Source: a virus (Duplodnaviria > Caudoviricetes). Taken from it: DNA of 64,000 nucleotides. This document shows, in pieces, positions 39,248 through 44,223 of this stretch (its first letter is position 1; each line of letters starts with the position of its first letter). The DNA lies in IMG/VR virus record IMGVR_UViG_2863389319_000001; one strand, given 5' to 3'. The notes beneath the pieces are model-generated. The model had not been told where the DNA came from and ran no database searches. It saw nothing but the letters and a program-made list of their open reading frames with translations. A program made the position numbers and the translations under genes.

Positions 39248-39661
39248 ATGGCCGACATGAAGGCGTTCGCAGACTGGCTCCACGAGCAGATGATCGCCGC
39301 CGGCTACGACCTGAGCAGCCAGCGCTCCGGCGGCAAGAGCAAGCTCGCCAACGATGCAGGCGTCGCTCTCTCCCAGGTCCAGCGTGCCCTCGGCGGGACA
39401 ACACGTCCCGACATCGTCACCCTGCGGGCCATCGCCCATGCCCTTGATATCCCGATGAAGGTCATGCTCGTGCGGTCCGGCACTGTGGACGCAGGGGACC
39501 TGGACGAGCAGGTGCTGCCAGCTTCGGATCTCGACGTGCGCACCCTGGGGCTCCAGCGCGGCGTTCCGGCCGACAAGCTCGATCACTGGGTCGCGATCGT
39601 CGACGCGGTCACCGGAACGTTCGCCGCCGAGCGGCAGCATCACGGTTCTGCAACTCCCTGA
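39248..39661 (+). CDS. XRE-family repressor 2 (cI-like)
   Basis: FADWL...KSKLANDAGVALSQVQRALGGTTRPDIVTLRAIAHAL; GGAGG RBS. Confidence 0.85.
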   Translation: MADMKAFADWLHEQMIAAGYDLSSQRSGGKSKLANDAGVALSQVQRALGGTTRPDIVTLRAIAHALDIPMKVMLVRSGTVDAGDLDEQVLPASDLDVRTLGLQRGVPADKLDHWVAIVDAVTGTFAAERQHHGSATP

Positions 39662-39719: not shown

Positions 39720-40307
39720 ATGGCCCTCTTCAAGAAGTCCCAGCCCTCTGACTCTTCCGGTCCGGCGCCGCTCGCCGAGTACAAGGTCGTCTACAAGGGG
39801 GGCCTGGCGGACCTGCCGAAGGCGAAGGTCGCGGGGATCGAGTTCCGGGTCTGGGGCGATCGGTTCACGCTCGACCCGACCGCGGCGGCCAAAAGGTTCT
39901 GGACGCCGCTCGCGATCCCCTTCTCCGCCATCTCCGACCTGAAGATCGTCACCCGGCAAGTCGGCACAGGGCAGGCGATCCTCGCCGGCGCCAACGCCCG
40001 GAACTTGGCGCAGGACAACAACATCCACTTCCACTTCCAGGACGCTGCCGGCCAACAAGTCATCCTGCGCGTCGAGATGCTCACCGGCGTCACCGTCCAG
40101 GGCCAGGCCAAGAAGGCCGCCGAGTTCAACGACCTGCTGCAGGCCCACGGCATTCGGCGGCTCTTCGGTGGCGCGCCCCAGGCAGCAGCCACGGCGCCGA
40201 CCGGCGGCTCGCTGGCCGATGAGATCGCCAAGCTGCAGCAGCTCCTGCAGGCTGGCGCCCTGAGCCAGACCGAGTTCGAGCAGGCGAAGGCCCGGCTCCT
40301 CGGGTAG
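39720..40307 (+). CDS. SHOCT-domain protein (PH-like N-terminus)
   Basis: C-terminal LADEIAKLQQLLQAGALSQTEFEQAKARLLG. Confidence 0.85.
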   Translation: MALFKKSQPSDSSGPAPLAEYKVVYKGGLADLPKAKVAGIEFRVWGDRFTLDPTAAAKRFWTPLAIPFSAISDLKIVTRQVGTGQAILAGANARNLAQDNNIHFHFQDAAGQQVILRVEMLTGVTVQGQAKKAAEFNDLLQAHGIRRLFGGAPQAAATAPTGGSLADEIAKLQQLLQAGALSQTEFEQAKARLLG

Positions 40308-40331
40308 TCCGACCTGTGCGCGGTGCAGGTC

Positions 40332-40361
40332 GGGCCACCCCCGAAATTTCGGGGGTGGCCC
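40332..40361. terminator. Perfect 30-bp palindrome / terminator-like hairpin
   Basis: GGGCCACCCCCGAAA|TTTCGGGGGTGGCCC. Confidence 0.65.
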
Positions 40362-40450
40362 CGTCAGCCCCGCGCTTCGATATCGTGGCGATATGCCGGG
40401 CCGGCGGCCCGCGCGATCACCCTGTCCCTCAGCGCAGACCGGAGGCCCCG

Positions 40451-40717
40451 ATGACCGACGAGCCGTGGACACTCGAGCGGATCTCCGACGCCTTGGGCAG
40501 CCCCGGCGTCCGCAAGGTATTCCTCGCGCAGATCAACAAGGCGCCGGTCTACGAGCTGTCGAACGTCGCCGCGAAGTGGCAGGGCATCGCCGAGCGGACC
40601 CTGGCCACGGGTGAGCGGATCCGCGCCGATCACGCCGAGGTGGAAGCCGGTCGGCCGCTGCCCGGCGAGTGGATCGAGGGCTCGCACCGCATCGCCCAGC
40701 ATCGCGGTGCCGCCTGA
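40451..40717 (+). CDS. Putative antitoxin-like protein
   Basis: GGAGG RBS; 88 aa helical; 1 bp before RelE-like gene. Confidence 0.5.
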   Translation: MTDEPWTLERISDALGSPGVRKVFLAQINKAPVYELSNVAAKWQGIAERTLATGERIRADHAEVEAGRPLPGEWIEGSHRIAQHRGAA

Positions 40718-40718
40718 G

Positions 40719-40967
40719 ATGACCTACGCCCTGCGCTACGACAAGACGATCGAAATGATCTGGGACAGCCTCCCGGAGCCTGCCTCGCAAGCCCTCGGTG
40801 ATGCCCTGGCGCAGGCCTGCGCCGATCCGCTCGGCCGGACCGAGCCGTACGGCGAGGACGACGGCGTCATGCGGACCCTGGTGGTCTCCGAGCTTCTGTT
40901 CGCCGTCGTGTACCTCGGCCACGTCACCCGCACCCTGCACCTGTACCAGATCGACTACGTGGGCTGA
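40719..40967 (+). CDS. RelE/ParE-like small protein (putative toxin)
   Basis: YALRY...WDSLPEPASQAL...DP...RTLVV..FAVVY pattern. Confidence 0.5.
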   Translation: MTYALRYDKTIEMIWDSLPEPASQALGDALAQACADPLGRTEPYGEDDGVMRTLVVSELLFAVVYLGHVTRTLHLYQIDYVG

Positions 40968-40988
40968 CGGGTCCCCAGGGAACTGCTG

Positions 40989-41019
40989 CGCCCCGCGGCC
41001 CGAATTGGGCGGCGGGGCG
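40989..41019. terminator. Hairpin between convergent genes
   Basis: CGCCCCGCGGCCC-gaatt-GGGCGGCGGGGCG. Confidence 0.5.
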
Positions 41020-41034
41020 TCGTCGTACCCGGGT

Positions 41035-41451
41035 TCAGCGGATCATCTGCAGGTAGGCCTTCGCGCTGGAGTGCAGGTCGAATGCCGCACCGAACCCGAC
41101 CGCGGGCGACACGGAGCGGGCCGAGTACACGTCGACGGCCGAGAACTCCCCGCGGTCGACCTTGATCAGCGCAGCTACCAGGGCCTGCTCGACGGTGGCG
41201 GGGTCGCTCGTCACGGCTGGCACCTCCCGCTCCGGGATCTTCTCGCCGAGGATCGGGTCCCGCTCCGGCTGCTTGTAGTCGTCGCCAGGGGCAACGGAGA
41301 CGGCCTGCCACCTGGTGGTCTTGCCAGCAGCCTCCACGGCGATTCCGTACGGGTGGCGGGTGTAGCCGGTGGCGGCGAGGGCCGCCGCCTTGAGGCCGGG
41401 GATAGTCGCCGCGGCGTCGAGGAGCAGCTGCTGGAAACGGTGAGGGCGCAT
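41035..41451 (-). CDS. Hypothetical protein
   Basis: GAAGGA RBS; MRPHRFQQ...HPYG. Confidence 0.65.
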   Translation of the reverse strand: MRPHRFQQLLLDAAATIPGLKAAALAATGYTRHPYGIAVEAAGKTTRWQAVSVAPGDDYKQPERDPILGEKIPEREVPAVTSDPATVEQALVAALIKVDRGEFSAVDVYSARSVSPAVGFGAAFDLHSSAKAYLQMIR

Positions 41452-41526
41452 GGGGGTCCTTCGGGGATTCGGGGTCGTTCGATTATGTACGCCGCGAACG
41501 TCATGAACGGACCGCCCCGCCGGGCG

Positions 41527-41790
41527 TCAGAGCGCCCGGAGCGCCCTCTCGCAGTCCCTGCAGCGCTGCTCCTCCATGCCCGGCGGATACCAGGGCTCGC
41601 CAGGCCGGACGGGCCGGTAGTGGGCGTGCTCCATCGGCCCGGTGTCCAGGCCGCACAACGTGACCCCGAGCGGATCCTCGGGCACGTCCGGATCAGCGCC
41701 GGCCGCGTGCACCACGAGCACAACCGGCTCGACACCGTCGGATCCGAGGGCCCCCTCCTGCTCCAGCTCGAACAGCACGACGATCGCCAT
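41527..41790 (-). CDS. Small zinc-binding hypothetical protein
   Basis: H...TLCG...CRDC; divergent from peptide gene. Confidence 0.6.
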   Translation of the reverse strand: MAIVVLFELEQEGALGSDGVEPVVLVVHAAGADPDVPEDPLGVTLCGLDTGPMEHAHYRPVRPGEPWYPPGMEEQRCRDCERALRAL

Positions 41791-41925
41791 GCCCCCAGCC
41801 TTATTCCCATTCGAGGGTCGCGCATCTTCCGGGCTCAGCGCCCCGCCGTGCTTTCATGCGCTCTGGTGCCGGGTCCCTCCATTGCGGTTGGCTGGACGCA
41901 TCAACCCTCCGACAAGGGAGCCTCG

Positions 41926-42072
41926 ATGGTCCTCGAACCCCTCGGCATGGCCGGCGGTGACGGGAACGGCGGGAATGGCGACATGCTTCCCGGCCAGCCG
42001 TGGCCCGTACCAGCCCCGGAACCCCAGCCCGACGGCGGGCCGCCGCCTGGTGACGGGGGCCACCGTAAGTGA
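41926..42072 (+). CDS. 48-aa Gly/Pro/Asp-rich putative RiPP precursor (imiditide/pamtide-like)
   Basis: AAGGGAG RBS; three DG and two NG sites, ends PPPGDGGHRK; stop overlaps methyltransferase start (GTGA). Confidence 0.7.
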   Translation: MVLEPLGMAGGDGNGGNGDMLPGQPWPVPAPEPQPDGGPPPGDGGHRK

Positions 42073-43205
42073 CCGCCACCAATCAGGACCGTCCCGCTGC
42101 GCCGGGGCGGTCCTTCCCTGTCTCCGACCCCTGGGTCGCGGCGTTCGAGGCCGTCCCTCGCGCCCAGTTCCTGCCCGACCTGATGTGGGCACACGACATG
42201 GCCCGAGGCGCCAGCGTCCCTGTCGACCGCACGGCGGACCCGGGCGCCTGGAACGCTGCCGCGCAGGCCGACATCCCGATCGTCACCCAGTGGGACGACG
42301 GGCGGCACCGTGGCAGCCCGCCAGGCACAGTGCCGACCAGCTCGGCGAGCATGCCATCCGTCGTCGCGGCCATGCTGGACGACCTCGACGTGAGCCCAGG
42401 TATGCGCGTTCTGGAGATCGGCGCCGGTACCGGCTGGAACGCCGGGCTGCTCACGCACCGGCTCGGCGGCTCACAGGTCGTCAGCATGGAGGTGGATCCC
42501 GCCGTTGCCGAGACCGCCCGCCAGAACCTGGCTGCCAGCGGCCTCCATCCGACTGTGATCACTGGCGATGGCTATGCAGGCCACCCAGCCGGGGCCCCCT
42601 ACGACCGGATCATCGCCACATGCGGCATGCGGCAGATTCCGCAGGCCTGGGTCGAGCAGCTCCGCCCCGGCGGCATCATCGTGGCCCCCTGGGGGACCCA
42701 CTTCGAGAATGGCGACGCGCTCGTCCGACTGGCCATCTCCCAGGACGGCATCGCGGCTGGCCCTTTTCTGCGGCCGGTGGAGTTCATGAAGCTGCGCGCA
42801 CAGCGTCTCCGCCCACCCCAGCATCCGGCCGAGTTCCCCGGCGACGCCGACACCAGCACCACGACCCTGCGGCTGCCGTTCGGCCCGTGGGAGGCGTTCC
42901 CGTTCGCCGCCGGCCTGCGCCTGGATGGCGTGACCCACGTTGCTGGTCGCCGTGGCGACGAGCAGGCGGTGTGGCTGTACGGGCTCGCCGACCAGTCTTG
43001 GGCGGCCACGGTCTTCCGGGATGGTGTCGACCACGCCACGGTGTGGCAGTCGGGGCCTCGACGGCTCTGGGATGAGATCGAGGCCGCGTATCAGTGGTGG
43101 ACGGCCGTGGGCCAGCCGGGCTTTGAGCGGTTCGGACTGACCGTCGATCAGGATGGCGAGCGGGCATGGCTCGACCATCCCGCCAACCTCGTAAGGGCAA
43201 GGTGA
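42069..43205 (+). CDS. PIMT-like SAM O-methyltransferase with C-terminal WxxxGxP domain
   Basis: VPRAQF, TSSASMP, VLEIGAGTGWNA, GDG, APYDRIIAT, QLRPGG; C-terminal GPRRLWDE...WTAVGQP..FGLTV. Confidence 0.9.
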   Translation: MTATNQDRPAAPGRSFPVSDPWVAAFEAVPRAQFLPDLMWAHDMARGASVPVDRTADPGAWNAAAQADIPIVTQWDDGRHRGSPPGTVPTSSASMPSVVAAMLDDLDVSPGMRVLEIGAGTGWNAGLLTHRLGGSQVVSMEVDPAVAETARQNLAASGLHPTVITGDGYAGHPAGAPYDRIIATCGMRQIPQAWVEQLRPGGIIVAPWGTHFENGDALVRLAISQDGIAAGPFLRPVEFMKLRAQRLRPPQHPAEFPGDADTSTTTLRLPFGPWEAFPFAAGLRLDGVTHVAGRRGDEQAVWLYGLADQSWAATVFRDGVDHATVWQSGPRRLWDEIEAAYQWWTAVGQPGFERFGLTVDQDGERAWLDHPANLVRAR

Positions 43206-43208
43206 CCC

Positions 43209-43376
43209 GTGCAGGGATGGGTGAACCCGAAGTACCGCGAGGCGGTCACCTCCGTCCGGCAACTGCCGCGCACGCCATGGCGTGACGGCAGGCTCCGGCC
43301 CCGCGGCGCCGTCATGGCCGTCGGCAATGCGATCTACGTGGTCCGGCCAGCCGAGGGCAAGCCAACTACGGAGTAG
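43209..43376 (+). CDS. 55-aa hypothetical protein (third gene of PIMT operon)
   Basis: AAGG RBS + GTG; VQGWVNPKY...; not in ORF track. Confidence 0.5.
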   Translation: MQGWVNPKYREAVTSVRQLPRTPWRDGRLRPRGAVMAVGNAIYVVRPAEGKPTTE

Positions 43377-43394
43377 AGCCAGCCCGAGCATGAC

Positions 43395-43429
43395 GAAGGC
43401 GCCCACCGCGACTTGCGGTGGGCGCCTTC
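43395..43429. terminator. Bidirectional terminator-like hairpin
   Basis: 15-bp perfect stem GAAGGCGCCCACCGC-gactt-GCGGTGGGCGCCTTC between convergent genes. Confidence 0.8.
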
Positions 43430-43443
43430 ATCGCTGCCCCCGA

Positions 43444-44223
43444 TCAGCCGGTGCGCGGCCAAGCGGCGGAAGAGTCGCGCTGAACCTGGTACGCCAGCGC
43501 GAATCGCTCGCCTGACATGCGGGTTTCGTTCACCTCAATGGCGATGGTCTCGTCACCGCGCCGGATATGACTGGTACGGGTAACGACGAGGACCGGGATC
43601 GCCTTCGAGATCTTCAGGGCCGCCTGCTCCTCCTCCGTGGGCGAGCGAGTCCAAGCCGCTTCGTCCCAGCTGATCGGCGCCTTGAAGTATTCTTCGGCCC
43701 GGTCATAGATCCCGCCCGGGCCGGGCTTCTCGGCCCCCAGCGCGGGGATCTCTCCGACCAGGGCCACCGGGATGTAGCTGCTAGCGAGTTGGAGGACCTG
43801 CTTCGGCGTGGGCGGCCCCATCCGGCGATCTCGGACGAGGACGTCCTGTCCGCGCGGCACGCCGAGGATGTCGGCGACGTGGTCGGGCGGGACAGCAAGT
43901 CCGCGGGTCGGCGCCTCGATGGCCACCCAGTCTTTTGCGTTCTGATCGAAGAAGTAGCCGATCTCGTCGCGGTAGACCGTGCGGTCCCGGACGACGATGC
44001 GGCTACGCGGACGCTCGCGCACGTAGGCCCCCTGTCGGCCACGGATCTCCACGTAGCCGTCAGCCGCCAGCGCGCGGACGGACTTCATGGCAGTACCCCT
44101 GTGGACACCGTACCGTTCGGCGATCTCCTCCCCTGAGGGCAACTTAGAGCCGGGGCCAAACTCGCCGGCCTCGATCGCCGCCCGCAATTCATCTGCGACA
44201 CGGCGGGTCTGATCCCCGGTCAT
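43444..44223 (-). CDS. GntR/HutC-UTRA regulator (KorSA/TraR-like)
   Basis: ADELRAAIEAGEFGPGSKLPS...YGVHRGT...GAYVR wHTH plus UTRA; divergent from transfer operon. Confidence 0.9.
   Translation of the reverse strand: MTGDQTRRVADELRAAIEAGEFGPGSKLPSGEEIAERYGVHRGTAMKSVRALAADGYVEIRGRQGAYVRERPRSRIVVRDRTVYRDEIGYFFDQNAKDWVAIEAPTRGLAVPPDHVADILGVPRGQDVLVRDRRMGPPTPKQVLQLASSYIPVALVGEIPALGAEKPGPGGIYDRAEEYFKAPISWDEAAWTRSPTEEEQAALKISKAIPVLVVTRTSHIRRGDETIAIEVNETRMSGERFALAYQVQRDSSAAWPRTG

Follow-up and report, generated by a model that had tools for sequence, protein, structure and literature searches.

The imiditides and pamtides are a class of RiPPs whose chemistry is well described, and whose biological function a 2026 review (PMC13001092) names as the main open question. 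The class is predicted to have between 670 (Cao et al.) and 1,414 (Lee et al.) members, which occur mainly in Streptomyces and related organisms. Type I pairs that have been characterised include SpaA–SpaM of Streptomyces sparsogenes (PMC10787088) and NmaA–NmaM of Nonomuraea maritima (10.1101/2023.04.07.536058; reviewed in PMC13001092), in which an Asp residue of the peptide is methylated in a SAM-dependent reaction, an aspartimide is formed, and hydrolysis leads to isoAsp or Asp. Published type I precursors are of about 45 aa, with 17% Gly, 17% Pro and 10% Asp. The WxxxGxP motif, to which we return below, was established in PIMT homologues of lasso-peptide systems. The imiditide/pamtide literature, including the 2026 review, makes no mention of phages, plasmids or mobile elements, as far as a search conducted partly by term reaches.

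Here, we describe a pair of this kind in a 64,000-nt stretch of Caudoviricetes DNA (IMG/VR record IMGVR_UViG_2863389319_000001; hereafter, the window). We consider it highly probable that the pair is a type I pamtide/imiditide cassette of two genes, which a temperate phage carries as cargo.

The Locus and Its Host Element

The peptide and methyltransferase genes are situated inside a prophage of a Kitasatospora chromosome. To the left of the cassette, the window encodes a DnaB helicase (at 34.5 kb) and early genes and, to the right, a TraB-like FtsK protein, a tail spike (58 kb) and a large terminase (62 kb). It is the phage genes on either flank (DnaB on the left, tail spike and terminase on the right) that place the locus within the prophage, in agreement with a first-pass annotation of the DNA, which had assigned it to a mobile element. 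A megablast search with the 30–54 kb section of the window against a phage collection gave no match. Several further full-length PAMT paralogues (i.e., PIMT-like SAM-dependent aspartate O-methyltransferases) occur elsewhere in the same genome.

A Pfam search identified a CI-like, HTH repressor-like gene on the plus strand (39248-39661), from which a cro-like gene in the same region is divergent, and a KorSA-like regulator gene with GntR and UTRA domains on the minus strand (43444-44223), convergent with the cassette. Two reverse-strand ORFs (41035-41451 and 41527-41790; GC3 of 0.90) lie between the repressor-like gene and the cassette. The cassette shares the strand of the CI-like repressor gene, 3′ of which it is located, and diverges from cro and the early genes, and this arrangement makes expression from the prophage most likely. 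Judging from its position, the cassette would most likely be expressed there as an accessory (moron-type) function. Co-transcription with the repressor gene is unlikely because of the reverse-strand ORFs (41035-41790) in between. No promoter was called by a sigma-70 consensus scan, a type of scan that carries little weight in actinomycetes.

The Precursor Peptide Gene

The gene for the 48-aa precursor peptide (41926..42072, plus strand) corresponds to the tail end of a 424-aa reading frame (40798-42072), the upstream part of which we consider spurious because of its GC3 of 0.74 and its overlap with the two reverse-strand ORFs of higher GC3. The ATG of the peptide gene is preceded at a distance of 5 nt by a ribosome-binding site, GGGAG (41916..41920, plus strand), read from the sequence, while no comparable site is present ahead of the internal Met8. 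Ribosome-binding site, GC3 and reverse-strand overlap all agree with the first-pass annotation, which had recognised the 48-aa peptide at the end of a spurious ORF. The coupling to the PIMT-like enzyme that it had proposed can likewise be read directly from the sequence: the TGA stop codon of the peptide gene overlaps with the GTG start codon of the methyltransferase gene in the tetranucleotide GTGA.

The peptide (pI 4.2) consists of 27% Gly, 23% Pro and 8% Asp and ends in a basic C-terminal tail; its core reads LPGQPWPVPAPEPQPD36GGPPPGD43GGHRK. The GC3 of its gene (0.78) is below that of typical genes of this DNA. We have taken the frames upstream of related enzymes from this genome, from 60 more genomes of its genus, from 80 additional species, and from phage and IMG/VR records. 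At 108 of the 114 related loci, a Gly/Pro/Asp-rich ORF ends within a few bases of the enzyme start. The window peptide is a member of the largest precursor family (family A), which has the common core (L/H)PGxP(W/Y)xxP…PxPD(G/S)…PPGDGGHRK. In the closest relative, found in genome G005, the enzyme is 75% and the peptide core 91% identical to those of the window; over the last 33 codons, the two peptide genes differ by 11 synonymous and three non-synonymous codon differences, a pattern of purifying selection. The conservation at 108 of 114 loci, the common core and the synonymous excess together lead us to regard the 48-aa peptide as the product of a real gene. Moreover, precursor type tracks enzyme clade in a tree of 125 enzymes, with 17 label changes against 50.9 when the labels are shuffled (a contrast that is inflated by kinship).

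The Asp of the PxPD(G/S) motif, Asp36 in the window peptide, is kept in all family-A precursors listed, and is the predicted site of modification. The second Asp, D43, is also followed by Gly, and several relatives have N, G or S in its place; D43 could be an alternative or additional target.

The Methyltransferase

The PAMT gene (42069..43205, plus strand) encodes 378 aa, and its product was identified by Pfam, NCBIfam and fold comparisons. It matches the Pfam family PCMT over residues 92-240 (E = 2.3e-31), the phage family phrog_13505 (1.6e-113) and, over the full length, NCBIfam TIGR04188, an ATP-grasp-peptide methyltransferase family (2.4e-95), where its 320 bits fall short of the cut-off of 380. 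With that score and with no ATP-grasp gene nearby, we have rejected a graspimiditide system. The equivalogs for repair enzymes are missed by a wide margin: the enzyme scores 91 bits against TIGR00080 (cut-off of 159) and 108 bits against NF001453 (cut-off of 188). A canonical repair methyltransferase, which would have a single domain and some 210 aa, is nearly refuted by these sub-cut-off scores, the length of 378 aa and the extra domain described below. The sole match found with PADLOC, to mad2, is limited to the methyltransferase core (residues 96-223), and membership of an anti-phage defence system was rejected on that account.

The PIMT core, with its SAM-binding region and PIMT substrate loop, aligns with 1JG1 (4.3e-25) and 1DL5. 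In an alignment with 39 homologues, the glycines of the SAM motif GxGxG (G118, G120 and G122) and the TSS-S-P substrate loop are invariant. The core is followed by a C-terminal domain of about 130 aa with the WxxxGxP motif (residues ~245-378), which is a hallmark of RiPP-associated PAMTs. The first-pass annotation had pointed to a C-terminal WTAVGQP as an instance of this motif, and rightly so: it occupies residues 344-350, and the same 39 homologues show no variation at W343, W344 and P350 of the motif region, and next to none at G348.

An AlphaFold2 (AF2) model of the enzyme (pLDDT of 89.7) resolves the C-terminal domain into the elements E261-265, H276-284, E288-295, E298-305, E311-317, E323-328 and H333-346, a beta-alpha-4beta-alpha order, which is the arrangement given for PAMTs in PMC10787088. 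The top fold match of the model is 1DL5 (Foldseek E = 2.7e-20 over 367 columns, covering both domains), the sole solved structure in the PAMT clade (PMC10787088).

Type I pamtides/imiditides are recognised by a SAM-binding domain and a C-terminal recognition domain in an enzyme of 300-450 aa (the length filter of Cao et al.), accompanied by an adjacent Gly/Pro/Asp-rich ORF of 30-75 aa with a conserved Asp; as a signature of imiditides, Cao et al. also employed a C-terminal MEME motif of 41 aa. In the window, we found a PIMT-like Rossmann domain with GxGxG, a C-terminal domain evident from the AF2 model, the motif and the 1DL5 match, an enzyme length within the range, and a peptide of fitting length and composition with a conserved Asp. 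A Pfam search that covered the ORFs between 39248 and 44223 and the window's larger ORFs yielded no primary RiPP enzyme of the ATP-grasp, lanthipeptide, lasso or YcaO kind; the genes around the pair are those of a phage and of regulators. At the level of sequence, assignment of the pair to the imiditides/type I pamtides is supported, as is the earlier suggestion of an aspartimide/isoAsp RiPP precursor paired with a PAMT.

The Downstream ORF and the Hairpin

Behind the methyltransferase gene lies an ORF of 55 aa (43209..43376, plus strand) of doubtful status. Its GC3 of 0.86 is coding-like, and it has no match in Pfam, NCBIfam or PADLOC, no homologue adjoining any other PAMT, and matches at chance level only, none of them credible, in 200 genomes of the same family. 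Genome G005 has a 44-aa ORF in the equivalent place, the likeness of which is confined to the first ~14 residues (W..P.Y.E.V..R), and alignment of the two at the DNA level requires indels that break the frame. A DUF6087 protein is encoded right after the PAMT in eight of 121 loci, including three on linear plasmids; we rejected it as a general third gene at that frequency, and the 55-aa ORF did not match DUF6087 at E values up to 1, nor an HMM made from the eight loci. The ORF that had been singled out as a possible partner or receptor thus exists, but it is not conserved, and with no family match, no homologue beside PAMTs and no relation to DUF6087, we rejected it as a partner. On these comparisons, the cassette is one without a conserved third gene.

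A perfect, GC-rich hairpin of 15 bp was found by folding at 43395..43429, with a free energy of -41 kcal/mol (z = -5.7; none of 200 shuffled sequences was equally stable). It is kept in G005 with compensatory changes in the stem. Its stability and conservation are in line with the strong terminator annotated earlier, but it has no U-tail, and a consensus terminator scan made no call, the hairpin being missed for want of a T-run. Located between the cassette and the convergent GntR gene, the hairpin is probably a bidirectional terminator.

Relatives on Chromosomes and Mobile Elements

Most relatives of the pair are chromosomal, with no mobile-element genes in the vicinity. Around the loci of 80 species, the nearest 116 large neighbours represent 145 Pfam families, and integrase, phage or transfer families are absent from the 25 commonest of these. 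We therefore saw no general enrichment of mobile-element genes among the commonest neighbours, a tally that leaves room for single occurrences as it lists those 25 families only. About 25 loci adjoin a WhiJ-type regulator set (DUF6879, HTH_31 with DUF5753, HATPase_c_2 and DUF397). Within the genus, the distribution is patchy, 26 of the 61 genomes carrying the enzyme at E ≤ 1e-100.

Similar pairs nevertheless recur in no fewer than three lineages of phages, and linear plasmids have them as well. In G005, roughly 15 kb separate the cassette from a terminase that shares 83% identity with the one in the window, and the cassette adjoins replication genes common to both; a 93-kb contig carries it, and two larger contigs have identical copies close to their ends. 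A search of this genome for TraB homologues at E ≤ 1e-10 gave none. Since the cassette is kept in a related phage where TraB was not found, it has no fixed link with the conjugation module, and we rejected the idea that it is cargo of a KorSA/TraB module; the link with a KorSA/tra module drawn in the first-pass annotation does not hold up. Judged from this comparison, the cassette goes with the phage backbone.

The cultured Streptomyces phages of Austintatiousvirus encode an enzyme that is 48-49% identical, together with a Gly/Ser/Asp-rich ORF of 48 aa. In Austintatious and Alderaan, a repressor-like gene, small ORFs, the precursor gene and the PAMT gene follow one another in the order and on the strand seen in the window, and the repressor-like protein is 37-40% identical to that of the window. 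Eight contigs among the 2.9 million of IMG/VR carry such a pair; in one of these, a GH25 lysin gene and one for a C1-type HTH protein stand directly upstream. Linear plasmids of 60-250 kb have pairs that adjoin conjugal-transfer genes. In the tree of 125 enzymes, those borne by mobile elements occupy at least seven separate places among the chromosomal ones. A fair reading is that the pair is an accessory cassette, repeatedly picked up by phages and plasmids, rather than part of the element's own machinery.

Discussion

How the pair would work can be proposed from the chemistry of its family. The peptide would bind the enzyme, probably through contact between its basic GGHRK tail and the acidic protein (pI about 5.25). 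With SAM as methyl donor, the PIMT-like domain would then methylate Asp36 of the conserved P-x-P-D-G motif on its side chain, upon which the amide of Gly37 would attack the methyl ester to give an aspartimide, to be hydrolysed to isoAsp or Asp. Since the cassette includes no protease, exporter or second enzyme, the product would probably be the full-length peptide, active inside the cell.

The weightiest alternative is that the cassette serves the element itself, as a signal, in exclusion, or by controlling induction or TraB-mediated transfer, with the KorSA-like GntR/UTRA regulator or the product of the 55-aa ORF as its partner. The location between an immunity region and the GntR gene speaks for such a service, as does the recurrence of pairs in the lysogeny region of Austintatious-type phages, in the IMG/VR contigs and on linear plasmids, with element-borne enzymes in several parts of the tree. 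Yet the phage of G005 retains the cassette where TraB was not found, the 55-aa ORF is not conserved, and most relatives reside on chromosomes amongst unrelated neighbours or beside WhiJ-type regulators; there is also no signal peptide in the cassette and no gene for an exporter or a receptor, and a mere eight loci in the whole of IMG/VR is a small number. A role in element biology is not favoured by this distribution, and we regard it as unlikely.

Less probable still is that the enzyme acts on another host or phage protein with a Pro/Gly-rich, Asp-containing segment and that the small ORF is a decoy, a regulator or a leader. There is a precedent in the 1,410 PAMTs that adjoin FHA-domain proteins, the P/G-rich, Asp-containing tails of which were suggested as substrates (PMC10787088), and a cassette without protease or exporter would suit this option too. 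Against it, the peptide is closely linked to the enzyme and varies along with it, the Asp is kept throughout the family-A precursors listed, and the enzymes of NmaA/NmaM and SpaA/SpaM, type I pairs that have been characterised, act on the adjacent peptide; we give it a slim chance. Finally, the outcome that the first-pass annotation had named as its own refutation, a generic isoaspartate repair enzyme, here present on a phage by chance behind an ORF that is itself a chance frame, could appeal to the PIMT-like core and its alignment with 1JG1. It is contradicted by scores far below the repair cut-offs, by the C-terminal domain that marks RiPP-associated PAMTs, and by an upstream ORF that recurs at nearly all related loci and shows the signature of purifying selection, and we consider it exceedingly improbable. 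A type I pamtide/imiditide cassette carried as accessory cargo by a temperate phage accounts best for the observations.

As such, the locus is an ordinary addition to a known class, one more among >1,400 predicted clusters, and what sets it apart is the repeated carriage of such pairs by phages and plasmids, a context that could help to find a function. The question of function becomes accessible to simple genetics with a lysogeny-region cassette that recurs in cultured phages of S. venezuelae, a tractable host. One may speculate that temperate actinophages and linear plasmids repeatedly carry type I pamtide cassettes as cargo on the lysogeny side, and that their intracellular aspartimide/isoAsp peptide acts in phage–host or phage–phage conflict (e.g., superinfection exclusion) or in the control of host development. 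We rate this as a long shot; if true, it would be the first biological role for this RiPP class.

Comparison with Known Systems

The graspimiditide methyltransferases (TIGR04188; e.g., ThfM and AmdM) provide the best NCBIfam match and have the C-terminal domain and the expected chemistry in common with the window's enzyme; unlike in those systems, there is no ATP-grasp ligase near the window's pair, and its peptide does not contain a graspetide core. In structure, the PIMT of Thermotoga maritima (1DL5) comes closest across both domains, but it is a repair enzyme without a partner peptide, only 23-24% identical, and its domains are oriented differently (rmsd of 7.6 Å overall).

Closer in setting are the phages Austintatious, PapayaSalad, Alderaan, Ididsumtinwong and Bioscum (34-38 kb), where the genes are annotated merely as methyltransferase and hypothetical protein: gp24 is an “O-methyltransferase” (phrog_13505) accompanied by gp25. 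As in the window, a full-length PAMT (48-49% identical, as given above) comes after a small, Gly-rich, Asp-containing ORF, and the pair is on the strand of the CI-like repressor, between lysis/late genes and the immunity region (cro). Their precursors are of another family, however, with MSGKHGGGSGSG…QQDD…SSDG and no PxPDG core. The methyltransferase is not mentioned in the paper on Alderaan.

The closest resemblance in kind is to SpaA–SpaM and NmaA–NmaM, compared here by their published descriptions rather than by sequence. Like the pair described here, these systems consist of two genes, one for a Gly/Pro/Asp-rich peptide of ~45 aa with a basic C-terminus and one for a PIMT homologue of 300-450 aa with GxGxG and a C-terminal substrate-recognition domain; no additional RiPP enzyme is nearby, and they share the occurrence in Streptomycetaceae. 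By the same kind of comparison, the length, composition and basic tail of the window peptide fit those of published type I precursors in general. The pairs differ in the site of modification, which is Asp-His in NmaA and, by our prediction, Asp-Gly within PxPDG in the window peptide. They also differ in setting: the window's pair is carried by a prophage, a context that goes unmentioned in the imiditide/pamtide papers covered by the search.

PAMT paralogues and closest relatives

The genome that carries the window encodes at least five further full-length paralogues of the PIMT-like aspartate O-methyltransferase (PAMT), at C1:5650439-5651536, C1:646987-648078, C1:3303387-3304454, C3:512055-513077 and C2:275545-276546 (contig:coordinates; L004-L008). 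One is accompanied by a PxPDS…GNGGHRK precursor and one by a phage-type QQDD…TSDG precursor, while upstream of each of the remaining three lies an enzyme-like ORF, not a peptide, which makes these probable members of the graspetide type.

The closest relative of the cassette occurs in three identical copies within a single genome, G005 (L044-L046; C1:8495016-8496140, C2:849136-850260 and C4:46492-47616). One copy lies on a 93-kb contig, the two others less than 20 kb from the ends of two larger contigs. The accompanying terminase is 83% identical to that of the window; no TraB was found in G005. The three copies may reflect a linear plasmid-prophage with terminal sequence common to the other replicons, or they may be an assembly duplicate.

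Genomic neighbourhood of the pamtide pair

Between the SHOCT-domain gene (39720-40307) and the cassette, the window contains two ORFs in different frames, 40316-40717 and 40611-40967, which overlap by about 100 nt; both have coding-like GC3, and neither has a family match.

In 8 of the 121 loci, the PAMT gene is directly followed by a gene for a DUF6087 small protein of 73-82 aa (L074:8181-8429, L075:8130-8378, L076:8160-8381; also L026, L095, L098, L104 and L114). Some of these loci are on linear plasmids, namely those of Streptomyces yangpuensis, Streptomyces avidinii and Kitasatospora aureofaciens.

The pamtide literature surveyed makes no mention of an association with WhiJ-type regulators. 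In about 25 of the 80 further species (loci L077-L156), such a set is located directly upstream of the pamtide pair (e.g., L086:7391-9100, L092:8209-9057 and L113:7841-8050), comprising a DUF6879 protein, an HTH_31+DUF5753 regulator and an anti-sigma-like HATPase_c_2 protein; a BldB-like DUF397 protein is often part of the set as well.

Asparagine at the second core position

In several relatives, Asn replaces the second core Asp of the precursor, changing PPGDGGHRK to PPGNGGHRK (L004, L029, L031, L034, L035, L091 and L121). Asn-Gly pairs can form succinimide spontaneously, and this position might, therefore, not need the enzyme to arrive at the same end state chemically.
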